This document shows, one piece after another, positions 28,881-60,119 of a stretch of DNA of 64,000 bases. Under the pieces are notes generated by a model that worked only from the letters and a program-made list of their open reading frames with translations, searched no databases and had not been told where the DNA came from. Numbering within the stretch: the first letter of the stretch is position 1; every line of letters starts with the position of its first letter. The position numbers and the translations under genes were made by a program. Source of the DNA: Marsupella aquatica (taxonomy: Eukaryota; Plantae; Marchantiophyta). The stretch lies in contig OZ316897.1 of NCBI GenBank assembly GCA_973895155.1, positions 22,233,455 through 22,297,454 of the forward strand, given 5' to 3'.

Positions 28881-28882
28881 TA

Positions 28883-28897
28883 GCCCTCCACTTAAAT
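28883..28897 (-). other. Polypurine-tract-like motif adjoining the 3' LTR (ATTTAAGTGGAGGGC)
   Basis: Abuts the 3' LTR; an identical 15-mer occurs at 32366-32380 just after pol. Confidence 0.7.
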
Positions 28898-28957
28898 TTC
28901 GCCGTGTCCCCACAAGACATGACCGAATTGAATCAGAAGCGAGTGACATGTTCTTCA

Positions 28958-29434: not shown

Positions 29435-29446
29435 AAATGGTGTCCT

Positions 29447-32020: not shown

Positions 32021-32403
32021 CGCGTGACTTGTTAGCTCCGTAAGCTCAGTGAGAATCGTGTTCCATAGTGAACTAGGGCGAAGCGCGACTGCTTACTCCT
32101 CAGCGTCCCGTTGAGCTGTCGCAATCCGCCATTGTACAAGATGCCTAGTCATCGGCTCACAGCGTCTCATGCAACTGAACTAATACAAAAGCGGACCTCT
32201 GCACAACGTCCTTTGTAAACTAAGTGGACGCTTCCCCAGCGTCGAGTTACAATGGACGCTTTTCACAGCGTCCAATGTAAAAACTGAAAGTAACTAAAAA
32301 AAATTAAAAAAATATGCCGAATACTTACTAGGGAGGGTCACTAATTCTAACTAAGTATAACTACCGCCCTCCACTTAAATTGCAACCTGTCCCAGGTGGA
32401 ATT

Positions 32404-35376: not shown

Positions 35377-38300
35377 TCAGGAGGGCCTAGTTGGTTTTAT
35401 GGGAGCATCAGACAGATAAACTTCCAAGTAACGAACTTCCTCCAGTTCAAATTCCAATGGCTGCAGGACTAGCGAAGAGGTCGAAAAATCCGAGGTGTAC
35501 CCATCATCTGTTTGTGTTTCTCCAAAATGTGGTTCCGGAACCCAACTAACAGTCACCTTAGGCTTCCCAAATGAAAGCTCTTGAGATTGCCAATTAACCT
35601 GAACTTGAGCCTTATACAACCATGGTCGGCCTAACAAAACAGGAAAGCTGGATGGTATTTCCGGATTAATAACCACATAATCCAACAGAAAAGGGACACC
35701 AGCAATCAAAGTTTCTACTTTGGTCAGCTTCCCTATGGGTACCACACGAGACTGATCCGCCATGCGCAAAATCTTGGGAGTGGGCTCAAACTTAGTGAAA
35801 CCCAAATTAAATGCTGCTGACTGTGTAATCAGATTAACGCTGGCTCCTCCATCCACAGGAACTCTCCGAATGACACACCCCTGGATTTGAACCTCAATTT
35901 CCATCGGTCCTTTGTCCTCCCACTCTGTTCGTAGCACATCCACAGAAGGTAACTTCTTCTTCCTCCGTTTTCCTGCAAGGAGGCTCCTCAGCTGTCGCCT
36001 ATAAACCGGATTGTCCTGTAATAATTCCCCAATGGTGATATGTGCAGGATGATTCTTGACATCTTCAACAATATCATAACCTGGATTTTTCAGTGGCTCT
36101 TTAGCTTTGACTACTACTGGTGGGTTAGGAGATTGCACTTGCTCCTTAACTAGCTCTTCCAGATGGTCTTTCACTTCCAAAGAGATGTCGGGCAAGAAGT
36201 ATTTTGGGTCATATCGGTCATAAGCAGGGTCATCTTCTTTGTCGAGGCCTTCCTTACATGGCTTGCGCCCTTCATCCTTGGGAGCTTTCGCGACCTTCTG
36301 ATGCTCGTGCTTCTTGGTCTCCTTTTTCTTCGAACGAGTAGTTGCGTAAATATTAGTCAGAACTTTATCCCGATTCTGAACTCGATCATTCGGCATACCA
36401 ACTACTTCAGGTTTCACTAAATGACTTACCAAGACATCAGGCACCACCCCGGATACTGGTTGATGAAAAAGTGAATCTGGCTTTAATTCCACCCGATTTA
36501 CATCCATATGTTGAATGAAGCTGCATTGCTCCATCTCTTCAGAATAAACCATCCGAATCTTGGCTTCAGGTCGACTTGCTTCTTTAACTGGCTCTTGAGC
36601 AAATCGAACCATCAGCCTAGGCTTAGCCGGATTCGGGCATTCCACCGGTAAGTGTCCTTCTTTTCCACAGTTCCCACAGACAGGTGTATACCCCACCTCC
36701 TGTTTGGGATAAGGGCACTGGGGTGAATAATGATCAGGTTGGCCACAATTCCAACAAGCCCCTTTTTGACGCGGCATTCCTCGTGGTGGGTATCCTCCCG
36801 GGGGTCCCATGGGTGGTCTTGACGTTGGTTTATTGAAAGTGGGCTTAGGTGGTCCCCAAGTCGGTCTGGAAGCAGGAGGTGGTGGGAAATACTGTCCAGG
36901 GGGTGCTGTTTGGACGGTATACGTGGGATCGTACTCATACTCCTCAGCCTCTTCTTGACCATCTACATAATTCACCGGGGTTCGTAATGTGGGGCACTCG
37001 TTCGGGTAATGGCCCTGCTGACTGCATCGGGTGCACCATACGTTCATTCTCATGGGAGCAGGCAACCTTCGTACTGGTTTTACCGCGGCGATATTGACAT
37101 TCAACTTGGACAATTGGCCAGAGAGTTCTTCCATCATGCGATCCATCTTCTTCTGGTTGGGAACTTTATTATTCCCTTTTACAGAGGATTTCTTCTTTTT
37201 AGGAGCAACGGATTCTGAGTCGGAACTTGAGCTTGAACTATCACTAGTGCTCGAATTTGTACTCTCGTCCTCCTCACTAGTGCTACTTTCACTTGATTCC
37301 GTCTCCGAGTCAGATTTAGACCTGGACGTTTTCTTCTTCTTTCTTTTGTCTTTCTTCAGGTCCTTCTTAACTCGTTTTCTCTCTGAAATCTCCGAGTCTA
37401 CGTACTTCTGGGCTGCCTCTTGTACTTCTTCCAAAGTGGTGCCACCTTCTCGTCTCACGTAACGAGCAATCCTGGAGGGTAAACCGTTAATAAACCAGTC
37501 CTTGATAGTAGATTTCGAGGTAGCTGGATTATATTGATCTACCAAATCCAATAATTTGTCGGCATATTTCCTCACAGACCCATGTTTCTTCATGTGCAGA
37601 TGTGAGATTCGGGCAAAGGCACGCGCAGCTGCTCCTTCTTCTTTATATTTGGCCAAGAAAGCAGCCTTCAATTTCCCCCAATCCTGCTTGTCCGGAAAAC
37701 GGTCATACCATTTCTGAGCACCCTTTTTCATTAGACCACCAAACAGATTGGCTTTTTCAGCGTCTTGACTCTGTCCATTGGATGCAGCTGCAGCTTCAAA
37801 TTCTTTCAAATACACCTCTGCATCCTCCTTGGAAGTACCGAAGAACCGGTCGTACCTCACATTATTTCGAGCCATCGTGGTTGGAGCTAGGAGGGTAACG
37901 AAAGGAAGAGCTGATCGGGTAGCAAATGGGTTTGGGCTGCCCAAGCCTGAACTGCTGCTTGTCTTACTAGAAGACGAACCACCGGCTTCACTCAGTGGTT
38001 CTGGATTATCCAATTGTGAAAGATCGACAGAATTATCTTGGGCCAGCGATTCTGCAACTGTATTCTCGGGTAAACCCAAATTTCTTCCTTCGGTATGAGA
38101 TAAGGCCCTCTCAGTGGTACTATCCACACCAGAGTCAATTTGGTTCACCGAACGTACTGTCTGCTGGCGGAGCTTGGTCTTTTGAGAACCAATAAGTTTT
38201 GGACCTGAACGAAGATTTACAAACAGGGGTCGGGTCGACGTGGGCCTTTCCAAAGAGCCACTTGCCTCTTGAATAGATCCCACTTGTTTCCACACACTAC

Positions 38301-38430
38301 CCGGTGCAGGTGCTCCTGGTGACTGGAATTCGGGTAACAATGTGCGAGGGGTCACTACTAATTTTGCAGCATCCGAATTACTGGAGGTCTTGGTAGGTTT
38401 TCTTTTATTCGGTGGATCTCCCTCAGACAT
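35377..38430 (-). CDS. gag: gag-protease of the nested element, 1017 aa
   Basis: Retrotrans_gag-like core; three CCHC knuckles (CTRCSQQGHYPNEC, CWNCGQPDHYSPQC, CGNCGKEGHLPVEC); protease VDGGASVN...LLGRPWL. Confidence 0.93.
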   Translation of the reverse strand: MSEGDPPNKRKPTKTSSNSDAAKLVVTPRTLLPEFQSPGAPAPGSVWKQVGSIQEASGSLERPTSTRPLFVNLRSGPKLIGSQKTKLRQQTVRSVNQIDSGVDSTTERALSHTEGRNLGLPENTVAESLAQDNSVDLSQLDNPEPLSEAGGSSSSKTSSSSGLGSPNPFATRSALPFVTLLAPTTMARNNVRYDRFFGTSKEDAEVYLKEFEAAAASNGQSQDAEKANLFGGLMKKGAQKWYDRFPDKQDWGKLKAAFLAKYKEEGAAARAFARISHLHMKKHGSVRKYADKLLDLVDQYNPATSKSTIKDWFINGLPSRIARYVRREGGTTLEEVQEAAQKYVDSEISERKRVKKDLKKDKRKKKKTSRSKSDSETESSESSTSEEDESTNSSTSDSSSSSSDSESVAPKKKKSSVKGNNKVPNQKKMDRMMEELSGQLSKLNVNIAAVKPVRRLPAPMRMNVWCTRCSQQGHYPNECPTLRTPVNYVDGQEEAEEYEYDPTYTVQTAPPGQYFPPPPASRPTWGPPKPTFNKPTSRPPMGPPGGYPPRGMPRQKGACWNCGQPDHYSPQCPYPKQEVGYTPVCGNCGKEGHLPVECPNPAKPRLMVRFAQEPVKEASRPEAKIRMVYSEEMEQCSFIQHMDVNRVELKPDSLFHQPVSGVVPDVLVSHLVKPEVVGMPNDRVQNRDKVLTNIYATTRSKKKETKKHEHQKVAKAPKDEGRKPCKEGLDKEDDPAYDRYDPKYFLPDISLEVKDHLEELVKEQVQSPNPPVVVKAKEPLKNPGYDIVEDVKNHPAHITIGELLQDNPVYRRQLRSLLAGKRRKKKLPSVDVLRTEWEDKGPMEIEVQIQGCVIRRVPVDGGASVNLITQSAAFNLGFTKFEPTPKILRMADQSRVVPIGKLTKVETLIAGVPFLLDYVVINPEIPSSFPVLLGRPWLYKAQVQVNWQSQELSFGKPKVTVSWVPEPHFGETQTDDGYTSDFSTSSLVLQPLEFELEEVRYLEVYLSDAPIKPTRPS

Positions 38431-39624
38431 CCCTCATTCTCCAAGCACGGGTGATTTTGAGACACCAGACCCGCTCCTCAGGAGTCTTTATGCAAGGAGT
38501 CACCATTTAGGTGCGACGTTATCACCCCACTCCGGGAGATATGAACCTGCTTCCTCAAAGTGACTTCCCGTAGCGTCGTTCAACATCCCTTGCATGATTC
38601 CTCCCCCTTGCTATCCCGTAGCTAATACTTCCCTTCAGTGACCAGCCGAGATTCTAAAACCTCGTTTTCTCTGGTGCGTCCTTCAGGTTGAGACGCGGAA
38701 AGGCACACCAGAAGCGTCGCGCACGTTGGTTCGTCACAGATTCCACCGGACGCTGCTCACAGCGTCCACTGGGATCGGACGCTACTCGAAGCGTCCTGAC
38801 TTGCGGAATCTTCTGGGACGAATCGCATTGGACGCTCTTCGCGGCGTCCTTCCTTATCTCCTTTACGGTGGCGATTACTGGAACCGGGCGTTCCCCATAA
38901 TCTCCGACTTCCTTCACCCTGAAATTTCTTTACCACATGGTACGCTACACTAGGCCATCCTACTAATCAGACGTCTAACTCCTTCCTAATCTTCTACGCA
39001 ATTCCTGGTGCATGATTCTTTCCGCTAACTCCCGAATGGAAATGACTAAATATCACTCCTGTGTGATCCTACCATTCAGCCTTAATATTACTAAATGCAA
39101 ACTTTCATCTTCCCACCAGGTGATAGTTAACCAATGTATGCCATTCCTCCCTCTCAGGCTCAGAACCCAAGAATTAACATAACGATTCCTCAAATTCCTA
39201 ATTCTTAATGTTCCCAAAGATCGGATAGGTGGCATCGGTCACACGAACCAGGATGGTTGGACAATTTTACAAATCATACGTCCCGAGCAACGTTAGAATA
39301 ACTTCACTTGTCACTCAAAGTGTCTTTGGTGTCTTCGACTATCTCCAAAGCAACTTGACGAGCAACAGCTCCTCTCTGTGAGGCCTTTTCTGGTGGGAGG
39401 GCGGTTTCTTCTCTTAAGTTTGGCACCACAAATTTTTCCAATACTCTTAAGAGAGCTTCCGGGGCGCTTTGGATAGAGTACGGCATCACCTCGAAATGGA
39501 AGCTCTTCATCTTTTTAACTGGAGTGATGACGCATCTTCACAATTATAGTAGAACGTGAATTCCTCTCCCGTCTAGCTCCTTCTGGCATACACTGCCTGT
39601 ACGTCAATTCAATCTTAAATTCGT

Positions 39625-39642
39625 TCCCCGGCAGCGGCGCCA
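39625..39642 (-). other. Primer-binding site TGGCGCCGCTGCCGGGGA (tRNA-Asp type)
   Basis: 6 nt from the 5' LTR; matches the Athila-type PBS complementary to the 3' end of plant tRNA-Asp (sequence recalled, not aligned). Confidence 0.85.
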
Positions 39643-39648
39643 AAAAGA

Positions 39649-41038
39649 TGTCGTATAGTGCTAAGTATCAAAAGTGACTCTCCTCACCTAAAACCAGGGT
39701 TTCGATCCCTTTAAGAACAGATTTCAGAATGAATTGTATAACTTTTATCACTCCGAGTGATTTAGAGTCTTGAGCTCTATGTTGACTTCACTTCTCAATA
39801 AAAAAATCGAATAAACAAACAACAAAGTAACTGAACTTCTGATTTATGAATTAGAGAAGAAATGAGTAAGGATTTAGAGACTACAAGCTGCTACTGCCAC
39901 TCCTTCAGAAAGGATTTGGGCTCAGTATAGACATGAAATCTATCTCATAATTCATCCATCTCACTCTTCAAAACACAAAGGTTAATGATAATGGAATTCT
40001 CAATCTGATAAAGCAGAAGCTTTCTGATTGCAAATGAATGATATGATTTAAAATGCCGTCAACATGGTTTGACATCAGCGATACGCAATTCAGTCAAACT
40101 CTAAACCATATTCCAGAATCAAAGCAACAGTACTAACTACTCTGAGAATCAGAATTTACTTCTCATTTATCATTAACTATTCTTGAATTGGCTAGCGAAT
40201 CCTGACTCTGCAAGCAAGCCTAGCAGTGAATTCAATACGAGTTTCAGAAATCTGCAACTGAATTCAATCACCACAGGAATCTCTTGAATTCAATCTTAAC
40301 TTCAATCAATATAGCTTTACTTCCATACAAAACACTCACAGCATGCCTTGTTACAATGGAAGGAGGAGAAAACTATTCAGAAGACTCAATTCTGAATACA
40401 GTATTAACTCTATTTCTCTCTACTTCAAATGAGCATTCTACTCTGTCTTATAAGTGCTGGAATCCTAAAATGGAGGAGGTAAGAACAGTCGTGCCTTTCC
40501 AAGCTTAAAACTAAACAAAGGAGAAGCACAGCATAAGTACTTCAACAAGTGTGGTAGAATACTACTTTACTAGTAATCTACTTCAAAAACTAAGTGTTGA
40601 GCGGACGCTGCTAGAAGCGTCGGGAGAATCTGGACGCTGCTAGAAGCGTCTTAAGTAAAACCAACGGACGCTGCTCACACTGCTCACAGCGTCAATACTA
40701 GGGTGGACGCTGCTCACAGCGTCGTGTGTTGAAGCTGACGCTTTCCACAGCGTCGGTCGAAATCCTCATAGAGTCTTGGTGGCGGTCGGGCACTGCCAAA
40801 AGCGTCATGAGGAGGTTGGACGCTTCCGCAGCGTCTTGAGTAAAAGAAACGGGCGCTGGTCACAGCATCGGGCAAAGTACACTAGGAATCGTCAGGAAAG
40901 CCGGAGATGTCAAATATTTCTATAAGTGTCCAGAACAAGTAAATGTTGGCCGGAAGGTGTCTAAAGTGTAAGTAAATCTTGTGATATGCTAAAAATAAAC
41001 AAGTTTCCAGAAAAAATTGCAGGGACACCCATACCACA
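39649..41038 (-). repeat. 5' LTR of the nested element
   Basis: 1390-bp direct repeat of 27491-28880, adjacent to the PBS. Confidence 0.97.
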
Positions 41039-43165
41039 GAGTTGGCCCATGCACATTATGAGGCCAGTATTGCGCGTCCACCGCGATCCAGGTACCAGGC
41101 TGCTGCTCCTACACTGGCCACTCCTTCCCGTGTGCCACAGTATGGTTCCAAGACCAAGCCAACACATGTTGCTTTCATGCTGCCATCTTGCAACTACTGT
41201 GGTAACCCTAATCACAAGGCTAATGAATGTGAGATTGTTGCTGAGGACCTGTCTTGTGATTTTTGCGGGAAAGTGGGCCACTTGGAGGCAGTTTGTTTTG
41301 CCAAATTCCCCGAGAGGAAGCAGCTACGACAGCAGGCCACTCATCCTGCTCCTATTTCAACTCCCCCACCAGCTAGGAGGGCTCCTACTGCATCAGTTGC
41401 TCCTCCTTCCAGTGGCAAAGCATCCAGTGCTAACAAATTGCCCAAGCAGCAACAAAAGCAACCCGCTCAGAAGGAGGCTCACAACGCACAGGCAACTCAA
41501 CTCCAGTCTCTGACTCATGAGGTTGAGTCATTACGTGCCCAACTTGCCAACATCAAAGGCAAGTCCACTGCCTCTGTTGTTCCTTCTCAACCGGCTGGTC
41601 ACGTGCAACCCATCCCTGGCCCAGGCACCTCTGACAGTTCAGCACCCCTACCCCGCTCTTTCTATGGCTTGCCATTTGATGCTCATATGGGTGAGTGTGT
41701 GTTGTCCTCTGCTCCACAGCCTGGCCTTACAGCAGAATTTTCAGATTCATTCGGCCCTTCCTATTTTGCTTACCAGCAGGCCAGTGCTGCCTCCCGTATT
41801 GCTCCCACACGCCGCATTGTACAAGCTGATGGTCTTGCTGCTGGTCCTATGACTAGAGCCAGGGGAGCTCGGGCTGTCATGCCCCAATCTTTTCAGCCAC
41901 TCACACTTGCTGAAGAGCGCACCTTGTTGGCGAGGGGGGAGGGAGCTACAGCTACATCCATTCCACCACCAGGTGCTGCTGACATTTCACAGGGAGTTGT
42001 TTTTCCTGAGCTGCTTGAGCATTTCACCTCCGGTATGGCACAAAGGATTCTTACCACTCCACTTTTTAGTTGCCATGATTTACAACTGGATGCTAGAGCT
42101 ATCATCAGAGCGCTAGAGGGCTCACTGCATTCTTCATCAGCCCCTGTGACACCGGTTTTGGAGGTCCAATCTCATGTTAATACTGGACCTTCTTCTTCTC
42201 CATTGCATGCTTCCACTGGTTTGGCTATCCCAGTACAGATTTCCAGTGGTAGAGATGACAGTATTGCTGTAGATTGTGTGACCAGAGCTACACTTGATTC
42301 TGGTCATGCTGCTCCATCTTTCCTGGCTATGCTGTTGAGTGGGAAGACCATGGACACTAACTCCCTTCACAAGGTACCTCATCATCTGCCAAAAGTGGTG
42401 CCTAGTGATAGGACTTTAGTTTCCACCACCATTGCCATTGTTGACAACAGGAATTCAGCAGTCAAGTTGGAGGGTCACACTCCTCAGGTGGTCATGCTAG
42501 ACACAGGCGCTCAACGAGTAATCTTGGGCATTCAGTTTGCCAAGAAGATGGGACTGCTAACTGATCATTTATAGCAATCCAGGTGGCACATTCGGACTGC
42601 TAGTGGCACTGTGGAGGATGTGTTGGGTGAGAGTTCTACTTTACTCACTCTCACTTTTAATGGAGGTACAGATCAGGAACTGCATTTCCTAGTCAGATGT
42701 TTGGTTACCAATGCCACTACGTATGATGTGCTCATTGGCCAGGAGGCTTTGTTCCCACCAGGTTTTACCATTGACAACTGGCATGAGCATGCATACTACA
42801 GAGTTGATTGGCATACGGATGGCTCACACTTGGGATACATTCCACTTGATTTGCATGGTGCCCATACCCCTATGGCTCACCACTGTGTGTTGAAAGCAGT
42901 GCACACAGCTACCTATGTCAACCACCCATTGCAGGATTGGATTGAGGAGGATGAGGATGAGGTGGCTATTGCACATGCTGCTGCACGTGTAGCAGCACTT
43001 TCCAGCAACGTGGATCATCAACCAGAGGTGGTACAACGGCTCCAAGCAGCCCATGGACCTTTGGTGGCTGCATTGCACAAATTTGAGGACCTTGGGCAGC
43101 ATAATGGACAACCAATAGCCCCAATCTTGAGCGCACCAGTTACCTGGACTCCTCCTTCAGATGGC

Positions 43166-44110
43166 CTTACATTGCTTGAGCTTTTTGGTGGCATTTCTAC
43201 AGGCCTGGAAGCTCTCCTAAAGTCTGGCATGGTGGTGAAGCAGTACATCTATGTGGATATTGATCCAAGTGCAAGGCAAGTGGCTGAATCCCGTCTGCTG
43301 GAATTTTCAGAGCGATTTCCTCAGCAGTTTCCACACAGTGCATGGAAGTCTGCATTTTCTTTCTTTCCTCCAGATATCCAGCTTGTCCAGCACCGGCACT
43401 TAACCCTTCTTGGCTCCCTTGATTTGATCATAGCTGGTTGGGAATGCCAAGGGTTTTCAGCTGCTGGTCATGGTGCTGGACTGCATGATTCTCGTTCTGG
43501 CCTTTTCACAGCATTGGTTCAGATTCTCACCTGGGCTCAATCCCTTTATCCTGCTGTTGGTTATATCATTGAGAATACTCCATCTCAGTTTGACCAGCGT
43601 CCACAGGTCAAAGAGGATTTCAGTGTGGTCCAACACTACTTGGGACCACCCCTTCTCATTGATGCAGTGCACTGTGGTTCTTATGCACATCGTCTTCGTA
43701 ACTTTTGGACTAACCTTGCACCACCTTCCTTGCTGGAGATGGCTCTTCACCACACATCCAGGGACACTAACCTTGCAGTGGACCAGATTTTGGATCCTGA
43801 CAGTTCTTGCCAACCAGTTACACGGCAAGAGCCAGCACCTTGGTATCCAGCTAATACCATTGGACAACCCCGTGCTGCTTGGCCTACATTTGTGTCCTTT
43901 CCAGGTGCACATGCTTTTCAGGGTGATGGTCCTGGGCTGGTTTATCGACATTCTACCGGTACATGGGATGAACCTAGTCCTGAGGAGAGAGAACGGGCTA
44001 TGGGCTTCCAACCCGATACTACAGGTCACACCAAAATCACCAGGCTGGCCAGGAATGCTTTACTTGGCAGGGTAATGGATCTCAATGCTCTCACTTGGCT
44101 TCTGGTCACT
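43166..44110 (+). other. C5 cytosine DNA methyltransferase domain (DNMT3/DRM-like motif style) inside the polyprotein
   Basis: Motif I LELFGGISTG, II YVDID, III PDI, IV IAGWECQGFSAAG (Cys codon 43445-43447), V GLHDSRSGLF, VI IIENT, VIII AHRLRNFWTNL, IX ERERAMGF, X RNALLGRVM; open across the whole domain. Confidence 0.9.
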
Positions 44111-47100
44111 TGCATCCTTTTTCAGATGTACATTCCTCCAGCATTAGGAGCTCCAGCCCTACCCCTCCACAGTGCTGCTACATGGCATCCAGACCAGGTG
44201 CACTTACCTCTAGTCAACACTCACCGCTTCAGTCCAAGTGTTGGGGGGGAGGAGGTCCCTTGTAATGTGGCTGACATTATTTATGAGTTTCATGGTGTGG
44301 ATCAGACTAGAGCAACAGATACAGCAGGCCTTGGAGAGGCCTCATCACCTTATCAGCAGCATGCTAGCAGCTTGGACAGTGGAGAGGCTGGCACTTCTGG
44401 CTCTTCAAGCACGAGTACATCAGGTCCTATTCCTAGTGTTGCCAACTACACATTTATCATGGGCAACCACCTGAGTAAAAGACAGAAGGACCAGCTGCTG
44501 AATTTGCTCCTCAAGCATGAGAATGTGTTTGCTTTCTCTATGAAGGACTTGGGTAAGTGCAAGACTATGCAGTTCTCCATTGAGTTGGCTGATGAAACAC
44601 CTATCTTTAGGCGGAGACACCGTTTGAGTAAGCATGAGTGGCAGCTGGTGGATGAGAGGTGCCAAGAGCTTTATGAAGCTGGTCTTATTCAGCCATCTAC
44701 ATCAGATTTTGCGGCAGCTACAGTGATGCCAGCAAAGAAGGACTCCAGTGGATTGTGGACAGAGAAGCGCATGTGTGGGGACTAGGCCATTGAACCTGGT
44801 CACACCCCAGGACAGGTACCCCATGCCGCGGCCAGAGGAGCTATTTGATAGCATTGGAGACTCAGACATCTTCACTCTTGTGGATCTAAGGCAAGGCTTC
44901 AACCAGATTTTGCTGCTTGCAAAGGATCGCAAGAAAACAGCTTTCCATGGTAGTAACCAACTATGGAAGTGGTTGGTGATGCCATTTGGCTTGAAGAATG
45001 CGCCCATATTCTTTCAAAGAGTCATGGACCAGGTTCTGCAAGGTGCTGAGTTTCTGAAATGCTACATTGATGATGTGTTGGTCCACAACAAAGGATTTGA
45101 CCAGCATCTACTTGACCTTGAGGAGCTATTCATGAGGCTTAAGAAGGTGAACCTAAAGATACACCCCAAGAAGTGTGAATTTGCTGTCAGATCAGTAGTA
45201 TATCTTGGGCATCGCATTCTTCCAAATGGAACCATGGCTCACTGGGCCAAGGTGGTATCCATCTTGGAAATGCCCACTCCTACCGATGTTCACACTTTGA
45301 GGAGTTTTATTGGGTTGTGCAATTACTACCGGATCTACATCAAAGATTTCAGTACCATTGCACACCCATTGTATGCTTTGTTGAAAAAGAATGTGACTTG
45401 GACATGGAGTACAGATGCTGAGGCAGCATTTGCCACTTTGAAGGAGAAGCTCTCAGAATAACCGGTGCTGAGAAGACCTGATTTCAACAAGGTCTTTGTG
45501 TTACACACAGATTGGAGTGCCCTTGGGATTGGTGCCATTCTGGGCCAGCATGATGAGGAAGGTAAAGAGTACGTCATTGCCTATGCATCCAGGAGCAACA
45601 ATCAGGCAGAGAGTCATTATTCTTCTTATGAGGGTGAATGCCTTGCTGTTGTGTGGGCTGTCATACATTACAGGCCCTACCTCTATGGGACCAGGTTTGT
45701 TCTCTACACCGACCACCAGCCCTTGAAGTGGTTGATGACCAACGACAAGCTTACTGGCAAGCTTGCTCGTTGGGCACTCATACTCCAGGAGTATGATTTT
45801 GAGGTAATTCATAGGCCTGGTGTGACACATCAAAATGCTGACACTATGTCCCGCAGCCCTTTGATTGCCTCTGATGATCCCTCAGATGCACGGCAGGATT
45901 TTGACCAGGTTTCCATCCTGCCTACATTTCATGCATCTACCTATCTTGCTTTGCTGCCATGCTACATTGTTGACCAACCTGTGGTGGACATATGGGAGGA
46001 CAGTGACACTCTGAGATTTCTGCAGGATGGGAGTACCCCACCCATGTTACTGCTGCCCAGAGAGACCGAATTCAGCAAAGGTCCAAGCGCTACTTGTGGA
46101 AGGGAGATCATCTTGTGCGCTGCTTGCCAGACAGGGAAGTGGTGGTTCCACCCATTCATGAGAGGGTTGGCCTTATCCGTAAGGTACATTCTGAGCTTGG
46201 TCATTTTGGTGTTAAGAGGACTTATAGCCTCTTGGTCCCCCATTATCATTGGAGAGGCATGCATGGCCAGGTTCGAGATGTTATTGCCCGGTGTGAGCAG
46301 TGTGATAGGGTAAGGACTTCTTTCACATCTTGGCAACCCACACTTCATCCACTCCCTATTCAGGGCATGTTTTATCGTTGGTCATGTGATTTTGCTGGAG
46401 AATTACCCCTCACATCTCGGGGTAATCTCTACATCATGATCATGATAGAGCATTTCTCCAAGTGGATAGAACTTGTGGCATTGCCGGATAAGACCTCCCG
46501 TAGCACCAGCTAGGCATTCTTGCAACAAGTTCTCAGCCGCTTTGGAGCTTGTGCAGAATGTCTCACTGACCAGGGCTCAGAGTTTAGAGGAGAGTTCCAG
46601 GAGCTGCTTGATCAGGCTCTCATTGATCATCGCCGGACATCCCGAGATCACCCATGGGCAGATGGCTTGGCATAGCGCATGGTTCAGACATGCAAGAAGG
46701 GCCTTCGGAAGATCTGCCTCACCAAAAACAAGGAGGATTGGGACCTGGCCTTACCCTACATTGCCATGGGGTATAGGATGTCCAGACATGCATCACTGTC
46801 TAACTTTTCTCCCTACTTCTTGTTGTTTGGTCGTCACCCAGTTCCACCTTCTGCTATTGCTTCTCACATGCTTCAGGTGGTGGACTTGGATTCAGCTGTG
46901 ACTTGGTCTGATGTGATCTCTGAGAGGGCTGCCCTATTCAGGAGGGTTATGCCCATGGCCATGGAGAATTTGGCCATTGCACAGCACAGGGACACACTGC
47001 GTTATGCACACACACGAGGGGGCACTTTTCAGCCCAAGGTCAGGAAGTTTGAAGTGGGAGATTTTTTGTACTTGCAGCGGCAAGCTAACGACACCCTGGA

Positions 47101-47281
47101 CACCTCTACCAGTCGCACTATTCTCAGGGTCAAAGCTATTCGACCGTCTGGAGTGCTAGAGTTACAAGGGGCAGATGGGCGCACAATTGCTGACAATGCC
47201 AAGAATTGCGCCCCTTGTCATCTGCCTAACCTGGATCCCACCATTGTGACTTCTACTTGGATTCCACCTGTGGACTACCCT

Positions 47282-47416
47282 TGCAAAGTGTGTTTGCGAA
47301 TTGATGATGTTGACCAGATGCTGCTGTGTGACAATTGCAATGGAGGGTACCATCTTTTCTGCCTTCGGCCTGAACTTACCCAGGTGCCAGAAGGGTTATG
47401 GTTTTGCCCTTCCTGT
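47282..47416 (+). other. PHD finger at the integrase C-terminus
   Basis: CKVC...MLLCDNCNGGYHLFCLRPELTQVPEGLWFCPSC is a canonical C4HC3 pattern, in frame with the integrase C-terminal ORF 46679-47434. Confidence 0.93.
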
Positions 47417-50400
47417 GCTCCACGTGCTACCTGAATTTTCTTCAGCCCTCCTTTTGACTGTGGTCTGGGGGGGGATACAGAGGTTTACACCTCCACTACG
47501 TACATACCATCTCAGTTGCTTTTTCTTGGCACTTGTGAATGTGATTGGACTTTTTTCTCAGGATGTTGGTTGCTAGCAGCTTGCACATATGCATTGCCGG
47601 TGACTTGTATGTTTTCGATACACTATGGCTACGATACTATATGTCACGACATAAGAGAAAAACATTTTGAGCTGAGAGAAATATGTCAAGGAAAGAAAAT
47701 ATAGCAAGGTGAGAAAAAGATGTCATATAGAGAAAAAACATTCGGAGGTGAGAAAAATAAGTCAATGAGAGAAAAGATGGTGAGATGAGAAAAAGATATC
47801 AATATGAGGGAAAATGTTGAGGGTGACGAAAGATGTTGTGGTGAGATAAAGATGACCAGGTGAGTAAAATATGGCAAAATGAGACAAATATAATATATAT
47901 GTTGAGGTGAGAAAAGATCTCAAGGTGAGGAAAATATGTCAAGATGAGGAAAGATCTTGAGGTGAGAAGATCTTAATATGAAGAAACTATGTCAAGATGA
48001 GAAAATATTTTATCTATATTTTATTTATATTTGAAAATATTTCAAAAAAATCAGAATTTTTAATTTATGAATAAATTTAATTAAAATTTGATTAATTTTT
48101 TCAATTGTGGCAGGTATGGGAAGGTTAAAGGGTAGCTTGGGCAGGAACTTGTTTTTAGAAGGGGTGTATGGATAGATCTTAAAGTGTGGAAAAAATTATG
48201 TTTTGATAAACATTCAAGATTGATTGTCGCTTTTTTGTAGTTTGTAAAGGGACCCGATCAGGATTATAGTGGTACATGGTAAAGGGAGGCCTCCTTGATA
48301 CTCTTGCATTGCTAGAGACCCTCCTTATTTTTTTTACTATTAAATTCATTTTGTGCTTGGAAACATTGCTCTCCATTTTCATTCACAAAAGAAATCATTC
48401 TTTCATGTTTTTCATGTTTGTAACATATAACTCTTGCATTGCTTATAATGTTATTGCATTGATTATAGTAGTCTTCATTCTTTCATGTTTATCATTCTTT
48501 ATTTTCATTCTTTATTTTCATTCTTTATTATAGTAGTCTTTCATTCTTTCATGTTTTTCATGTTTTTCATTGTTTTTATTATAGTTTTTGATATGATCTT
48601 TGTAATCTAACTTATTTTTAATTAACTTATTTTAATTAAATTACTATCATTATTATATTTTACAATATTGTAATACTTACAATAATATATAGTGTAATGT
48701 ATATTATGTATTTTTGTATTTCATGTGTATAACTCCTTGATACCCATGCATGTACATTCACTCTCTTGTTTTGTGTGCCCCATTGGTTCTAGCATTGGTT
48801 CCCTACTTTTGTGTCTCCTATTTGATTCCCCGTTTGTTTGGAATGTATTTATTATTTTTTGGTGCACACTGTATTTAACATAACCTTTATTCCTTCTTTT
48901 TGACATGATTAATATTTTTCGGACATTACAAATTTGAATGAATACCACTTCATAAAAAGGCGCAACCTTGTATTATAGTTTAGTATATTAACAAGGGATG
49001 GTGGGCTATAATAACCGGGAGCTATACTGTAGCTCCAGTTTCGAGATGCTGTTATTCCCCATGCAGGACAGTAATACACTTAAATATGCCTACAAGAGTT
49101 TTAATGCTTAGTAGAAATAGAGAAGTTTTGTATTGTCCCCATCCAAATATCAATGTTTGGGAAGATAATGCTGCTCACTAAAGTAGACTGTTCCCCTATG
49201 CTTCTAACTGTTTCCTAATGCAGAGCCTTCGTTAGAGGACAAGGTCCCAACGGTGCAGCCGTGGCAGAGCAAAATGTTACAGATAGGCCTGATAATTAAA
49301 GTGGTTTTTCATAAATGGGCAGCTAACTCTTTCTCCTTGACCCAGGGCCACTTGTAAAATAAAGGAGAAGTTCATTAAGAGGGCCCCTCTTGCATCTTTA
49401 GGACTTGATGGACATCAAAGATGGATTGAATACTTAACTAGACCCTTATGATGGTGAAGCTTTGTAAGTTCTAGAAACAAAGCCCAGAGAGACATGGCAG
49501 TGTGGTAGTTCACTTGAGTAGTGACTCATAGGTATTGGGTTCAAAAATTGTGACTGACTAATCCCTTTCTGTGGAGTTTTACAGATTTCCCCTTAAAATT
49601 AAAAATTTTTAATTTTAAATAAAACTTCTAGAAACAAAGTAGCAGCAAAAATTTGAACTTAGTGGAAGTTGGGTCCTTCTCCATTACACAGGGCACCACT
49701 GCTGCTACTCCTGGTGCAATTAAACCTGCAGAATTTTATTGGGTGACAGAATGAACTCTGTCTGAGATGATAACATATTGTTGGGTTGACCTCAGATGTT
49801 CAAACTTCCTCCTGACTGGGAAAGTTGGGACTTCTTGCCAGTCATGTTCAACTCTCAATCTGATGAACTCCGGTAAAACTTTCCCACAAACTACAATCTA
49901 CACTTCGGCCCTTACTCTTTTTTTATTTGCAATCCATGATTTTGGCTCTTCAATATATAGAGTTGACCAGTGAGTCCCAAACCCTGACAAAGTGGATTTT
50001 GTATGCATCTCAACTTTGCAATGAAAACTGTGCATGCATCTCTGGGGCGCTAGGCTAGTAGTAAATAATCACTTGAATGTGTAAAGTGGCAGTGAATCAC
50101 TAAAGTTATTTTGAATTTGTTGCATCTCGATCGTCCATGTGCATCTCTCCCAATTACACTTCCCCGTCCCCACCTTAATTCCTATTAGTTGTAGGGAGGA
50201 AAAGAGGAACATCCCATAATTCCAGCCACAGTTCCAGCCCTGCCAAAATAAAGCCCTTACATACCCACCTTCCCCTTTTCCAGTTCTAATTTTAGTAACA
50301 TATGCATTGAAAAAGTTTGGCATAGCACCTAGTACACAAAACACATTCTTTACTCTAAAAATGGTTATTTTCTCATCCTTTATTCCCACCTTTATTGAGT

Positions 50401-52776
50401 TCATTGATGTTTCACTTTTGCACTAACTCACAGTGGTGTCAGCACATTGCAGGCTGGGTTTGCAAAGTAAAGCTAGGTGTTTGCTTTCATTTGCCTCTTA
50501 CACAGCCTTTTACTCGTGATCCATTCAGACAATTAGTTTCGGGTGGATACAAATGAACTGCTTTCATCTAATTGGTTTAATGAGGGTCATGACAAAGTTT
50601 CCCTGCCCCCCCCCCCCCCCCCCCCCACTCCCAGTAAAAAATCTCTACCCCCCTGTGAACTACCCCCCTTTGTACCCCTTGTTATTATTTTTGTAACGTT
50701 AAAAATTTACCTTGTTACTTAGAAAAACCAACATTTTGGCAATACTTTATACCCTTCAGATAGTTATAAAATATAGGTTTGTTATATTTTATATAAGCCT
50801 CATTAGTTACATTTTCTTCGTTCAAAGAATATGATTTACCCCAATGTACCAAATACTTCCAGTGCTAATGCATGCACTTTATTGATAATACTATTTGAGA
50901 ATAACAAGTAGTCATATATGTCTATTTGGCAACATGATAGAAATAACAAAATACAATCTCCTCCCTAATAGAGGAAATATAATCGGCTTCCCTAGACTCA
51001 AACCTGATGACATCCTAAAATCCTAAAACCCTACAACTGAGCATATGTACAACCTTGCATAGAACTTGGGCCACAGATCTATAATTGGAGGACCCCAATC
51101 TTCTCTCCCCCTTGGATTCAATGGGCAGGGATTAGCCCCAACTTACAAAGGCATACCAAAAGGCATTGATAGACACATGTATCTATTAGATGATGCCATG
51201 TGTACCACTAAGATGATGTCGTGTGGCATAGATGATTATATACCCCCTTCCCAAAACCAAATGGGAGCATAATATCATTGGCCCTTCCTTATTTAGAAAG
51301 TGACATTCGCATATAATTGCAGGTTGTTTAGTTACAAGCAAATTCAAAAAATTACCTCAATATGAATAAAATTGACACTTGAATTGTTCTCACGTCCAAC
51401 CCGTTTTACCTAAGAGTGGGGCCCAGGGCAAAGTTTTGGGAAATCCATATTTTCAAATTTGGATAGTTAGTCTTAAGAATACACAACACCATAAAACATC
51501 TCAGCTCAAGTAAAGCTGACACAACAGAGTTATCCCTGAAAAACTCTGATTATTGATGCAACTTAGGATGGTAACATACCCAGTTAGCACAGAAACACCA
51601 CCATGAAAACTTAAAATAAGACTCAAACTTAAAATACTGTCAGTTCAATGTGCACATTGTCATTAATCATGAACATCTGATCTCACTCATTCATACATCC
51701 CAGAAATTTGAAGGTTTATTTGTGTGTATAGTTTTCCCTGTGTTTGTTGCTATGGGCATTTGAAATTTATTGTCTAACTGTTGTTGGTGGTCTTGAGTCA
51801 AACAGACCTGGTGTGTTTGTCAATTGTTGCAAAAATACTGCAAAAATACAGATCCCTGTTTTTGATGGAAAATGCTGGCATGGCCACACATGGAGCCAGG
51901 CCATTTAGAAGGCACTTTTTATGGGGTCCCTCAAGAAAAAGAAAAGGACCAAAATGGACAAAAGGAAAGGATTGGGAAGAATTAATGGAGAAGCCCATCC
52001 TGCTGGACTGAGCCTCAGAATCATGCAAGCAAATTAATCCACAGTGTCACTTTCACTAAGTCTGTTGTATTCGGTTTACTCACAAGCATTACAGGAAGGC
52101 TAGTCTACAAACTAGTTTCCACATCTCATACACATTCAAGCCAAAGTTTTAAATTATCCTAATTAATATGTAAAACACTCGCAAGAACAAAGGTCGCTAA
52201 ATCCGGAGATAGTATAAATTTCGGTGCATGCAGAGGCAAGAAGTTACATATAATAGTAAAGGGGAGAAAACAAAAATAAACTGATCACATAAAACCAAAA
52301 AGCTCCATGAGCCAAAAGGCCCTAAACAAACTAAACAAACGAACTACAGTTCAGTTGAGCCCTATAAGTTCTCCAAATTAACAAACAACAATGTCGACTA
52401 CCTGTGGACCTCTGAGTGCTACCTACAACCAGGCAGACTTATTCTATGAATTGGAAGCATTATAGATGCCTCCATATCAAATAACGAAGAAATACCGTTA
52501 GTCTCAGCAGCAGCCTTACATTTATAAGTGCGAAGTACTGCCTGGATTGGGGAATTCCTGTATCCCTGCTGAGTCTAGCTAAGATGGCACTTTCACAACA
52601 AATTTAGGCTTGATACCCAATGCGTGTACGGGAATGTAGTGCCCCCAAGTTTGGACAAAGTGTATCTACACCAAGCTTCACTACAAACTATGCGAATCTG
52701 GGAATCCGCCTGTCGGCCAATGCTCCAAGACAGAAGCCAATTCGTCAATCGTGTAACGTCGACCAGATTGCACTGT

Positions 52777-53772
52777 CTACCAGGTTAAGGTGACATTGTT
52801 CTTCATCGCAACGGACTGCTTGACCTTGTCTATTTCCTTGTTGTTGCCATTGATGCCGAAGGCCGTGCTGAGAACATTGTCGGGGAGACCTTTGCCACCG
52901 GCGGTGAAGAGAGCTTTGGCAATCAGGAGCGTTCCGGGGTTCTCACTGGAGAGCGCAGAGAAGCCTGAAGCCGGTGTCTTACCATTATTGCGCTGCCAGT
53001 GCAAAGTACCCTTGGGAAACACAAAGATGTCGCCCGCCAGCACGGTTGTCTCGAATAGCTCGTTTGCAGTATCGACAAATCCCACGTCAAGTGCCCCTGA
53101 AACAAAAATCAACCACAGGAATCACCACTTCAGTCTTCGTTATAATTAGTCATCACTGGGAAAAGCGGGGTTCTCAACATGTTTGAGCGTACCGAAGCAT
53201 AATTTTTTTCTAGCACGACGGCACCAACAGCTCGTCACATCATCTAACGATCCTAATGAAACACAGCTGCAGGAAATTAAACGCGCTAAGTGCGACCACT
53301 GACGAGCCTCCGGTCCGTCAGCACGTAAGAAATGCAGGACTTAGTTTGGTTACATTAAAAAATTCCAGTTAAAGGAAATGCCATTGATTCGGATTCCGGA
53401 TTATATTGGCATGCACACGGCTTAGATCCATTACTTGCAGTGTCATAACGAATTTTTCGGAACTGTACCTGAAAGAACGTAGAACACTTCGGTTGCACGA
53501 GGATGAGTATGGGGATCAATCTGCGACTCTGCGCCGAACTCGAACAGCACAGCTGCAAGGCCCAGCCCGCTGAGTCCTCTGATGGCGGCTCCGGTGGGCG
53601 CCGCTATTCCCTTGCCTAACGTCTGAGGGTTGCGGAATCCCTTGAAAGTAAAGTCGTTCACGGTCGGGTTGGTGACATTGAAATCGGTGGTGAGGTCGGG
53701 ATCACTCGCAAGAGCTGTGTGCACCATCAGTGTGGACACCAGCAGTCCCAGAATGAACAAGAATTTCGCCAT
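52777..53772 (-). CDS. Germin-like protein copy 5, 207 aa; exons 53772-53469 and 53096-52777
   Basis: Same motifs and exon sizes as copies 2 and 4; GT-AG intron 53468-53097. Confidence 0.95.
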
Positions 53773-55490
53773 GGTGTATCGGTTGATTCGATTCCCGCGT
53801 GTTGTTCTAATTCCGTTCGCTCCGATGTGATCAGAATTCAATTAATTGCACGTGGTCGACAGTTTCGGCAGGCTAGCGAAGAAGCACTCAGGCATGCAAA
53901 CAAGTCCGAAAGCTTTCAGTGAGGTGCTAAAAGGATAGATTTCGCAAGTCGAAGATCCGGTTCCGTTTGAGTCGTTTGAACAAGGACAACGGTATTTATA
54001 GGAATTGAGTGAGGGGAATTGGCTGAGGAGAGCAGTTCCTCGTAGAGAAAGGCAAGTCTGTTTGACAAAGTCAACAAGTGAGGACAACGGTGAGATACTT
54101 AGAAGAAGGCTCCACGGCTTCAACCTTCCTCCCGCCTCGCCCGACAGGCCCGGTCTTGTCTGGGCTGGGTCATGACTTGGTGAACGGACGAGCAGGTTGG
54201 CTTGGTTGGAAGGTCGATCGCCCACTTCGAACTTTGTACAATTAACGGCATTACACATTGTACCCTTGGCTGAAACGAGATTCCTCAACGTACAAGGGGT
54301 CCGTGCCTCCGTGCTTCTGAAGCGAGGACAAAATTATTGAAGTGGCTAGCAGATCCAAGTGAAAAGTGCATAAACGGAGCCTCTTTGTGCGACAAATCTG
54401 CGCGTTGTACATGCATGCAATAGTACGTACATCATCTTACTAGTTAAGTGCGAACTGCAGCCAACTGTTCACAAGCTCGGGTCTAGAGTGCGGGGTGCGG
54501 GTGAAAAGTAAGGGTGAGCCACTGCAACGTAATAGGGTTGGAAGAAGAAGCGGCGGATCTGGCACTTGAAACACAAGGGAGCTCCGTTGCTGCGTTGGAA
54601 GTGGATCGGCGATGGTACATGGAAAAGCAGGGGGTGGATCAGCGATGGTGCATGGAAAAGCAGGGAAGCGCACGTGAATGAAAGCCAGGGAAGTCCGAGA
54701 TCAGCTGCATGATCGACTGGCCTTTTAATTTTGCGCTGTCATTGATTTTGAATTTGCGTAAGTTGACTGCGTATAAGGATTGATCGACGTTTTGCAGTTT
54801 TCTCGGGAGCGGCATTTCCTCTCAGCAGAAAGGCAAGGACCGCAGGGCCAACTTCCTACGTTTGGTAATGTAGCTAAGAACTTCCTGCTCTTCGCTGCTG
54901 CAAATACTTCCAAGCTCAATCCACCACCTCCGAGCCTTATCGAGTGCTTCTTAAACGGCGTGCTTTGAGCTCGGTTGCCTGGCCGTTGTCCTGTTCGATT
55001 TCCCACCATTTGCGCCGTTGCCCTGTCTCTGATTTCCCACCATCAGACCTGCTCTTCATGGTAAGAGAGAGTTGCTGTCTGCACGCTCTCACAGGATTTG
55101 AATTTGGACAGTGAAAATCTGGAATTTACGATCTGCTGCAGGGATCTGGGAGGGACTCCACCTGTTGGCCTCGAGGATATCATCTACTCCCTTCTTCATT
55201 ACCCACATCACGTTTTGGCCTCACCCGGTGCTGTTTTCGTCACTACGTCATTCTGGTGGAGCAGGCATTCCCTTGACAAATTCCAACATCTCATATTTTT
55301 CAAGACGTAAGTAACATCGCCTCCCCCAAGTTCGAGCTCCCCTGAAGCTAGGGGATTCCGTCAAGAAGGTCTTCAATAACACCGCCACCGATAATAGAGC
55401 TGCTCGATAGATAACGCAGAGTCTTCTTACCAGACTGCTAATTCTGAGATGCTAAATCGGGGTAGAGCGAGCTCTAAGTGAAACTATTAG

Positions 55491-55738
55491 CCACTCCAAA
55501 ATACGTTGGAAATTGTTCCTCGACAGCTATACGAGTGCTCCGAAGCTGGATCTAAATACGTTGAAAATTGTTCCTCGACAAGCTATACAACTCCGGAGGA
55601 GCTAGGAACGCAATTATCCACTCCTGAATGTTGCAAATTGTTACTCGACCAGCTATACAGGAGGAGCTAGGAAAGCAATTAACCACTCCTGAATCCGTTG
55701 CAAATTGTCCACGCCAAGCTATACAACTCGGTGGAGCA
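55491..55738. repeat. Degenerate tandem repeat, about 4 units of 55-65 bp
   Basis: Recurring CCACTCC..AAT.CGTTG.AAATTGTT.CTCGAC.AGCTATAC...GGAG.AGC. Confidence 0.7.
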
Positions 55739-58714
55739 GCCAAAAGTCCGAGTCAGATCGTAAGATTTGTTTGTACATAGTCTAAGGTTGAGGTTCAGTT
55801 ACAATGAGTTTTCAAAATAGCACGGAACTGACTGAGCGCTGAGTGTAATGAAGTACAGTACTGAACTTGCTCTCTGTTCGCTTGAGTTGATCAGTGCGAA
55901 TGAGCTTACATATATTCATAGGGAGCACTCTGTCTCTGAAGTTGCCCGAGAATGGCACAACTATTCTCCCTTTCAGCGAAAATAGTTGAGGCTACTTCCC
56001 GATTCGAAATGCTGAGCGCTGCTTGGCCACTTGCCTGATTAAGCTCTCAACCACAGAAATTCAAAGCACCTGTTTGCCATAGAGCAGAATGGAGACTCGG
56101 AAGACCCTGTATTGGTGCTGCAGAGAAAAGATCTAACAGGAAGGAAGCAGATTAAAAAAGGAATGCCAAAACTCTGAATTTCTTGGACTGTCTGCCAATT
56201 ACGGATTCTAGCAGCACCAACAAATCTTTGCTACTCGAGAAACATACTTTGGAATCTTTCCTGTCTCTCAAAATATCAGATGATAATCGTCGTGAGGCCT
56301 AATTGCCCGGTCCTCAAGATGTCTGGCGCAGCCACTGCCTTCTCATAGGGCCCCATGTTGGAACGCACCCAGCTGCCATCTATCTCTACTTGCGTTTGTC
56401 ATCATCGGAGAAATTAATCGTGATGGCGTCTAATTTGTCTGTTTCTCTCAGATTACTTTAGCTATTGTCCTGAGTTTTTTTGGTACTGAGTCTTTTTTGT
56501 CTTCTGCATTTTTTTGTCCTCACCTCTATTGGCGTTGAAAGAACGGGTAATCGGAGCTATTCTCTCATGTAACGTAGACTATTGAGTCTCGTGTCAGGCA
56601 GATCGAACGGATATGGAAGTTGATGGGCAAAGGCATGAAACTAACAGACATTGAGTTTTCCTCGAAATTGCCCTGACTCACCGTCCCGTCAACAAATTTG
56701 ATTCATAGCGTTTTCAACATTTTCAACTCAGCACAGACAGATTATGTTGACACAGAATGACTTCCAAGGAGACAATGAGGTCAAGCCTGATGTAGCTACC
56801 TGGAAAGATACGTAGTATGAAGCACAAATGGATTTCCCTCTGTTCCCCACGGGAAATCCAGTTTGTGAAGGGGTGTTGCGCCAGCCTTCTGATCGGCCAC
56901 TTCGGGATCTGATTGGGTATCCAGATGGTTCGATACTTTCAGATCAGCTACTCCTCAACTCATTCAGCTCGTAAATATCAGCGTTGGGCCTTTTCTTTGT
57001 ATGTTCAGTCCTCTCATTTCCTCTACAAATTGTAATGTCGCCATTCAAATCGACGAGCTTCATTACGTACTCCAGCTACTCAGTGTACTCTACGAATTAC
57101 TCCGTCTTCAAACCAAGTCCCTCAGTTCCCCATGGGGAGTTTTCAGGTCACAGCTTGACAGTCAAGCAATCGCATGCATCTTAGCCACCTTTTCATTCAG
57201 ATTGATCGTTTGCTATTTTTCTCTTTTCTTTGGCCCAAAGGCACGAGGTGCGACATACCCCTCGGGTCCATGCGTTACTTTGTGATCAGACGGCGTTCAT
57301 TTGTACCAACACACTTCAGGAGGCGGTATGATAGCGGCGCAGGAATTGCTTGAACCAAAAAGCTGAGTCCTTAGCGTATCGCTTCAAACTGTCACTGCGG
57401 TCAACATACATAGTTGAGACGGTCAAAGAGATGCGTGTAGCCAGATATCCACTCATAACAGTCTAGTACTCAATACTGCCCAGGCAAAATAGCCCCTTAC
57501 ATCTGCCCCTTCCCTGAACCCAAACAAACACCGGATATCATTAGAGATTTCAAGCAGAGGAAGATTTCACATGGACTCCGAATAACTAAGGAAGCTCGCT
57601 TACGATACAGCTCAAGCAAACCTTCTCCAGTTCGTGTCACACAACTAGTGACAATAACCTCACGAGTTGGGAGGAAACACTGTGCATTGCTTACTGTTAA
57701 CTTAATCATTCGCTTGACAGACACTTCACCTGGGTCCATTTCTTAGTCTGGCACATCTCTAAATTTCTATTTCTTTGCCATCTCACAATCTGTATGTATG
57801 GACTTCAAAATTATTGAGCTAGTTCAATCCTTGATTCCCATATGTCGATTGAGTTGAAAGATCCGTTCTTTGATTTCAAAACCTGACTTCAGCAATCTCG
57901 CCCCTACATGAGTGTTGGCGCAAGAACGTTTAAGATGTAGAGTCAATAATGAGATGAAGACCCTTCAGTCCGGCCAAAGAATTGGTTTGCCTTTCTAGGT
58001 CCCCGCAAACCTTTGACATCTTCAATGTTCAAACACTGGTGCTTCGCCAATTGGGCCAAGGATTTAGTTTGGAAGTAAATGTGTACATTAATTTAATGTT
58101 AGATCGTTTTATTGTGAAGAGTTTTCGAAGGCCTCTGGCAGGCTTCGCACCACACCAACTGAGTTCAAGATGGCCTAGTTACTATTCGAATTTTGAAGTA
58201 AGTTTTCACAATACCAGAACTTCAAGCGACTAATGCAGACAGCCCCAGAAAGGTTCGGCCAGGAAGGGAACTTTGTAGCAAGATTCGACTTCAAGGTGAG
58301 CTCGGGGGTGAGCTCGACAAGTATCCGTCAGCAAGCTCATTCGCGTAGCCTCAGCTGTCAATTGAATTCAATTCGTAGAGTCAAATCTGATAGAAAACTT
58401 CCAAATTGGATACATGGTATCATGTTCACGTACATCCGTCCAGCATTGTCAGCTGCGACTTCAATTCTATTCCCGATAAACGTAAAACTAACTCCGATAG
58501 ACGATGACCAAATTGGGCATCTGTCATCATGTCCGTGTGGTGCATTCAACAGCTTTCGATTGGCATTAAGAATGAAGATACATCTGATAAGGAACGTCTG
58601 TCACTGCAATTCTGCAATGATGATGACTTATAGAAAAGAGTGGCCCGGCCTACTCACATCACAACCATAGACCGACCACTGGCAAGGCATTCGATTCGAT
58701 GACACATTCTGCTC

Positions 58715-59716: not shown

Positions 59717-60119
59717 TGTCGGAGAACGAGCTCGAAGTGTAGCTAGGAGCGTGTGGATTGGGCGAAGTTTACGGTATGCTTGCTCTGAGTTTGGCGTTGT
59801 AATGGCATTCTGAGTGTGGACTTGTGGAGATTGCAGAAAGATCCAAGGAATGTTTATACTGTCTTGCTCTGCGAGCTCTTATTTAGAGGTTTGGTGTGGA
59901 GGAAGGTTGGTTTGAGAATCCGAAAAATATAAAACGAAGACATGGACCACGACGTTTGGCCATCATTGTGTCCGGGCAGGTAGGAATTCGAACAGTTTGT
60001 TCTTTCCGTGTGTACTAGGTGTTCTAGAACGTGTCTTCCTTAGAGGTCTACTGCAATTTGGATGGATGTAGGAAGGAATTTCTTAGGAAGTTTCTGAAAC
60101 AAAAGTTCAAAAAACCTTC

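Follow-up and report, generated by a model that had tools for sequence, protein, structure and literature searches.

A conserved DNMT3-like domain within Pol of a decayed bryophyte Ty3/Gypsy element, and its possible role in methylating the element's own DNA

What does a cytosine DNA methyltransferase (DNMT) do inside the Pol polyprotein of a plant retrotransposon? The question is raised by a stretch of 64,000 nucleotides from the liverwort Marsupella aquatica (assembly GCA_973895155.1, contig OZ316897.1, positions 22,233,455 to 22,297,454 of the forward strand), here called the window, in which a Ty3/Gypsy element spanning 24758–47651 encodes such a domain between its protease (PR) and reverse transcriptase (RT). 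The reading that we lean towards, with some reserve, takes the window element for a dead member of a bryophyte family whose conserved DNMT3-like domain probably methylates CG in the element's newly made DNA.

The domain lies within a 736-aa open reading frame (ORF), stop to stop (42575–44785), that joins the C-terminal half of the protease, a C5 cytosine methyltransferase domain (43136–44125, plus strand) and the start of the RT, as the original prediction had described; lesions, not natural ends, delimit this ORF, and the DNMT frame itself is uninterrupted. The proposed assignment held up against the Pfam profile PF00145, which matches the ORF with 27.8 bits (curated cut-off 22, E = 2.2e-6), and DNMT3A is the top PDB sequence match (E = 1.2e-7). 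An AlphaFold model built from a 44-row alignment reached a pLDDT of 96.2 and a pTM of 0.93; Foldseek ranks DNMT3A/3B/3C highest against it (E = 1.1e-18, TM up to 0.74/0.85), and the ESM Atlas is concordant (score 0.96, top cluster mainly Streptophyta). A motif scan and the DNMT3A alignment, from which the motif labels were assigned, place motifs I (43181), II (43250), III (43367), IV (GWECQ, 43430–43459), V (43487), VI (ENT, 43562–43582), VIII (43682–43708), IX (43982) and X (44060) in the unpermuted order claimed earlier. The catalytic Cys (IV), the Glu (VI) and two Arg (VIII) are all present. On sequence and model, the window domain is a DNMT3-like C5 cytosine methyltransferase, for which methyl transfer is predicted.

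Relatives are found beyond Marsupella. Of 7,993 candidates in a first protein search, 34 proved to be relatives, those named including Calypogeia fissa, Sphagnum magellanicum and Marchantia polymorpha, and a later search added two further Marchantia genes. Two relatives, P0003 and P0060, hold gag, protease and DNMT in one open frame, which in P0060 also takes in the RT start. Metagenome contigs offered 446 candidate stretches, of which 244 passed confirmation; the 80 top scorers were retained and form 60 groups at 99% identity. Every one of these 80 loci carries the DNMT, so that no kept member lacks it, and the order is gag-PR-DNMT-RT-RNase H (RH)-integrase (INT)-PHD wherever the neighbours are on the contig. 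In four sequencing runs, too, the contigs span DNMT bins in addition to those of the RT and the integrase. No RNA run was listed as carrying the sequence, which has no bearing on its expression.

The domain is also conserved in sequence. The catalytic Cys is kept in all 76 scored loci, and in these decayed loci the motif VI Glu persists in 64 of 79 and the two motif VIII Arg in 49 and 48 of 80. The GWEC of motif IV, which had been called atypical, is instead the family norm, since Glu precedes the Cys in 76 of 126 parsed relatives (43 have Pro), as it does in 74 of 76 loci. Comparing the window with 76 loci, we obtained for the DNMT a median dN of 0.245 and a dS of ∼2.2 (dN/dS ∼0.11), and for the RT, with 62 loci, a median dN of 0.139 and a dS of ∼2.3, with dS near saturation in such comparisons. 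The DNMT value lies below the Ka/Ks threshold of 0.2, indicating that the domain is under purifying selection. This, together with its presence in 80 of 80 loci, bears out the claim that the methyltransferase belongs to Pol and is not a captured neighbour.

The element that carries it is assigned to Ty3/Gypsy by its domain order, Ty3-like RT and DDE integrase. A tyrosine recombinase replacing the DDE integrase, which defines DIRS/PAT elements, is not what it has: Pfam gave no tyrosine recombinase match across the six ORF pieces of the element that were scanned, and an rve plus H2C2 integrase is present. Its start is at 24758 and not at 41044, where it had been placed; 41044 is the first base past a nested insertion. 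Identical TAAG target-site duplications flank it (24754–24757 and 47652–47655) within a single simple-repeat tract that runs on at both sides.

All its parts lie on the plus strand. The 5' non-coding part (24758–26495) opens with a repeat, A, whose 9-nt terminus TGTCATGCC is that of A in related loci and whose 3' limit is undefined within the window; short direct and inverted repeats at 25550–26330 could pair as RNA structure. The nested insertion divides gag into a 5' part of 331 open codons from the ATG (26496–27490, 73% identity to the P0003 N-terminus) and a 3' part (41044–42424) that contains a linker and, from ∼41186, a pair of CCHC zinc knuckles. The aspartic protease (42425–42859, LDTGA near 42497; PF13975/PF13650, below cut-off on the half domain) is broken by a stop at 42572. 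The RT (44450–45458, YIDD; PF00078, E = 3.3e-27), to which Ty3 RT is the nearest solved structure (E = 3.6e-40), has a frameshift near 44783, and a stop at 45459 stands just before the RNase H (45462–45860; PF17917, E = 4.3e-39). The integrase with its H2C2 zinc domain (46007–47260) is hit by a frameshift near 46028, a stop at 46511 and another at 46673, where the third acidic residue belongs. With these lesions and the insertion in gag, the window copy is dead.

At the C-terminus stand a PHD finger with complete C4HC3 and the stop codon (47270–47434; PF00628, E = 8.7e-12). The nearest solved PHDs are those of WSTF, CHD4, Lid/KDM5, ATXR5 and BAZ2B. A PHD is reportedly also borne by REM1, a Gypsy element of Chlamydomonas. 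There follow a run of eight G (47467–47474), likely the polypurine tract and conserved immediately before the next repeat in related loci, and that repeat, B (47475–47651, 177 bp), which ends TGTCACGACA, is single here and shares its length, start and end with B of related loci.

A search of the window for a pair of long terminal repeats (LTRs) found no repeat shared by the 5' and 3' ends, and the 5' non-coding part shows no similarity to the element's 3' end. The related loci reveal a split arrangement: A (∼290 bp) stands at the 5' end, and the PHD is followed by the G run, B (∼180 bp), A and B. The full A-coding-B-A-B form occurs in L004, L012, L017, L039 and L070, and the window retains A-coding-B only. 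The ends are TG...CA, and nine of the 12 loci with both ends visible have a perfect 4-bp target duplication, none a 5-bp one. At the inner B-A junction the spacer is 2 nt in 18 of 18 loci (AC in 10, GC in four, GT in two and AT in two); because all four can be derived from GC by C-to-T change on either strand, the palindrome GACA-GC-TGTC is likely the original. Such a junction is reminiscent of retroviral and IS3-family circles, in which the ends abut. No TGG-type primer site was seen by eye in the 45 nt after A in nine loci; a first guess, a primer site near 25180 of the window, was abandoned once the A-B layout emerged. Among the matches listed from the run contigs, none shows a loose end at the B terminus.

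The composition of the element bears on what its methyltransferase may do. At third codon positions, C is rare before G in the DNMT element (25/383, 0.07) compared with the nested Gypsy (55/266, 0.21; p = 1e-7), and it stands at 437/851 before HH. The same holds for NCG (22/245 vs 60/196, p = 7e-9), and CHG is not depleted. At 18 sites (drawn from the 40 rows listed of 311) a C or G stands in other copies; only three of them are CG, which suggests that the CG loss is older than the window copy. In L078, another Gypsy has a CG observed/expected ratio (o/e) of 0.54, against 0.28 for the DNMT family. Such synonymous CG avoidance fits self-methylation of the element's complementary DNA (cDNA), the activity being predicted.

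The mechanism we propose runs as follows. As part of Pol, the enzyme would be packaged together with the RT and so be present during reverse transcription. It would methylate CG sites of the cDNA before or at integration, and the new copy would land already marked. The PHD on the integrase may read histone H3 tails and thereby pick sites, and the internal B-A junction (CA, 2 nt, TG) may serve as template for rebuilding both ends, with the integrase cutting there. Packaging of the enzyme in the particle and methylation of the cDNA have already been hypothesised for such elements, and SymbioDIRS-Dnmt3 domains, which methylated CG de novo in yeast, offer a precedent (PMC5890265, in its accessible text).

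Several observations weigh against this proposal. The 80 loci are the best of 244 by score against a DNMT-containing query, so that copies without the domain were selected against and the sample is biased towards DNMT bearers; a stop-free DNMT stretch of >250 aa remains in only one of the 80, and every dN/dS comparison shares the window sequence. Motif IV of the window has Glu before the catalytic Cys, where cellular DNMT3 and HhaI have Pro. The in-window control for CG content is one element, and a younger one, and an RT fragment in L039 has a CG o/e of 0.07, indicating that host methylation alone can yield CG loss, which is thus not diagnostic. Two of the 12 two-ended loci are without a target duplication and one has a 3/4 match. 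The KnitGypsy-Dnmt3 domain of Klebsormidium nitens produced no methylation in yeast, a result that its authors call inconclusive in the accessible text (PMC5890265).

A broader version of the same idea draws on more distant relatives. Among 23 long relatives, the DNMT stands after RNase H in 22 and before the RT in one, and two are named as chlorophytes, Tetradesmus and Hariotina. Of 139 further proteins, 84 have RNase H then DNMT and five have the DNMT after the protease or before the RT, one of these five being from Closterium; the remainder are fragments. One relative, P0041, is a DNMT-Gypsy polyprotein of 3602 aa that also matches PF00293, which we take to be NUDIX. A profile search returned 82,998 matches at E 0.001, but its profile included RNase H and integrase columns, so these are not DNMT counts and were not used.

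Trees of 37 DNMT and 29 RT rows, hand-chosen and run quickly in IQ-TREE with SH-aLRT as the sole support measure, unite the relatives of the after-RNase-H type (SH-aLRT 97 and 91, respectively) and cluster the window with Calypogeia and metagenome copies (SH-aLRT 100). Being midpoint-rooted and without cellular DNMT3, the trees are silent on the donor or the order of events. P0035, with its DNMT before the RT, falls inside the after-RNase-H group in the DNMT tree, which suggests that the domain has shifted position more than once. From these relatives and the split repeats one might sketch an old green-lineage Gypsy clade (chlorophytes, Zygnematophyceae, liverworts and mosses) that replicates without an LTR pair or tRNA primer, in which the GACA-GC-TGTC junction would template the termini, the DDE integrase would cut it as it would a circle junction, the DNMT3 would methylate CG in the cDNA and the PHD would pick the landing chromatin. 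As a whole, we hold this wider scheme as tentative and somewhat doubtful.

The same relatives allow another target for an active enzyme. Instead of particle cDNA, it could act on chromosomal DNA, whether at a new insertion and the sequence around it or at host loci, perhaps steered by the PHD-bearing integrase. DNMT and PHD do occur together in both architectures (40 of the 139 further relatives read RT-RH-DNMT-INT-PHD), the chlorophyte type places the DNMT immediately before the integrase, and the solved PHDs nearest to that of the window are chromatin readers. In the bryophyte family, however, RT and RNase H separate the DNMT from the integrase, and the CG avoidance inside the element fits, without proving, methylation in each replication cycle. 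We regard a chromosomal target as unlikely.

A separate doubt concerns the transposing form. If the A-coding-B form itself transposed, having been excised from a circular intermediate at both junctions, the layout of the window would be no product of later recombination. Single-B ends are indeed common: of 46 loci with a B match, 24 (18 groups) have a single B, 18 (14 groups) B-A(-B) and four are unclear, and the short copies retain perfect target duplications. In L071 (15335–15803, minus strand), 310 bp past an A-coding-B copy, lies a solo A-B unit without coding part and with a 3/4 target duplication, the equivalent of a solo LTR, which also speaks for such excision. Yet L012 (A..B-A-B) and L026 (A..B) show both forms at one identical site, with flanks 97% alike, which means that an element can be shortened once it has been inserted; an assembly collapse was rejected, the bodies of the two loci being no more than 92% alike. 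Free cutting of a two-junction circle should also yield the permuted A-B-A-coding-B form, which is absent from every locus inspected. The A-coding-B form of the window is thus probably a short form that arose after insertion, and it would have come from recombination between two B repeats; transposition of A-coding-B itself appears a little less probable even than a chromosomal target.

Slightly less credible again is a catalytically weak or dead domain, retained for DNA binding or scaffolding, for example to shield the cDNA. The Pro of the PC motif aids activity in bacterial enzymes, and here Glu replaces it in most loci and relatives. The inactivity of the Klebsormidium domain in yeast (PMC5890265, in its accessible text) points the same way. 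Set against this, the catalytic Cys never varies among the scored loci, the window and distant relatives alike retain the Glu of motif VI and the Arg residues of motif VIII, E-C and P-C are intermixed among relatives of both architectures, and a complete fold is predicted. That the methyltransferase is a one-off passenger captured by the window copy has nothing in its favour and deserves virtually no credence, being ruled out by the 80 of 80 loci, the three bryophyte genera and the purifying selection.

The proposed kinship with the DNMT-bearing elements of de Mendoza et al. 2018 (PMC5890265) is supported. As described in the accessible text, KnitGypsy-Dnmt3 of Klebsormidium nitens, with DIRS-like repeats and Gypsy domains, shares with our family an intronless DNMT3-like domain in a Gypsy Pol, key residues, purifying selection and DIRS-arranged repeats. 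Judged from its sequence, the window element matches this kind, already in print, and extends it from an alga to land plants; the comparison is by description, as homology searches and cluster look-ups of the protein collection retrieved no Klebsormidium-named protein. The PHD, target duplications and junction, all present in the bryophyte family, are unmentioned in that accessible text. The 96-genome survey table of the same paper, as far as accessible, includes Physcomitrella and Selaginella but not Marchantia and Sphagnum. SymbioDIRS-Dnmt3 of Symbiodinium also has a DNMT3 in Pol, A-coding-B-A-B repeats and two alternative domain orders (PMC5890265), but the text available describes integration by a tyrosine recombinase, whereas a DDE integrase, TG...CA ends and target duplications of 4 bp mark the bryophyte family.

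Other elements are further removed. EpiLTRs and DAM-LTRs (bioRxiv 10.64898/2026.05.21.726589) are Gypsy-like, with DNA methyltransferases and a chromatin-reading domain; according to the accessible sections, however, their DNMT is sister to DNMT4, DAM occurs too and the reader is a chromodomain, and the streptophyte Gypsy-DNMT3 elements are set apart from them. Gypsy-7a_cRei of Chlamydomonas (PMC9940879), a green-lineage Gypsy, likewise has a PHD in Gag-Pol, but the available description lists no DNMT among its domains and reports left and right LTRs. Cellular DNMT3 (animal DNMT3A/B and bryophyte DNMT3) has the same unpermuted catalytic domain and fold (TM 0.74/0.85), whereas the element DNMT is ∼21% identical to it, has no introns and no ADD or PWWP, is embedded in Pol and often has E-C in motif IV. 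Accessible passages of PMC12344493 and of bioRxiv 10.64898/2026.05.21.726589 place such elements in 'streptophytes', with bryophytes not named there. We found no description of a DNMT-bearing Gypsy from a land plant in the literature searched, a scope outside which subscription journals and Repbase lay.

The insertion in gag is a second Ty3/Gypsy element, without a DNMT and on the minus strand (27491–41038, 13.5 kb), with Pfam matches to gag, RT, RNase H and integrase. Its LTRs (27491–28880 and 39649–41038) agree at 1388 of 1390 positions, two differences that mark it as very young, and a 5-bp duplication, GAGTT, flanks it (27486–27490 and 41039–41043). A single in-frame stop at 35371–35379 (minus strand), TGA CAA TTA, parts gag-protease from pol and is presumably consistent with a CARYYA read-through signal. 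Downstream of its integrase lies an extra open frame of 881 codons without a Pfam match (29447–32092, minus strand).

Outside the elements, the window holds tandem duplications (1–23900 and 48900–61300) of two genes, one germin-like (cupin) and with introns, the other a short-chain dehydrogenase gene without introns, copies of the latter lying at 15445–16773 and 58715–59878; both elements break this array. A search with the germin exon narrowed the lineage no further than Streptophyta, and the two dehydrogenase ORFs were absent from the protein collection. A degenerate AG-rich tandem repeat (17990–18400, 23900–24750 and 47652–48010), into which the DNMT element integrated, borders it on both sides and recurs elsewhere.

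Our results extend DNMT-bearing Gypsy elements from one alga to land plants and also to chlorophytes, where the domain order differs. Annotated bryophyte 'DNA methylase' genes such as MARPO_0020s0163, MARPO_0204s0011 and MARPO_0008s0049 are probably parts of transposons, and programs that search for LTRs would overlook or misclassify elements with split repeats. The pairing of split repeats with a DDE integrase implies a route of replication for which the literature found has no description. The spread across land plants and chlorophytes suggests a function kept for a long time, and the copies in Marchantia, a genetic model, make it testable why a transposon should carry an enzyme that silences it.

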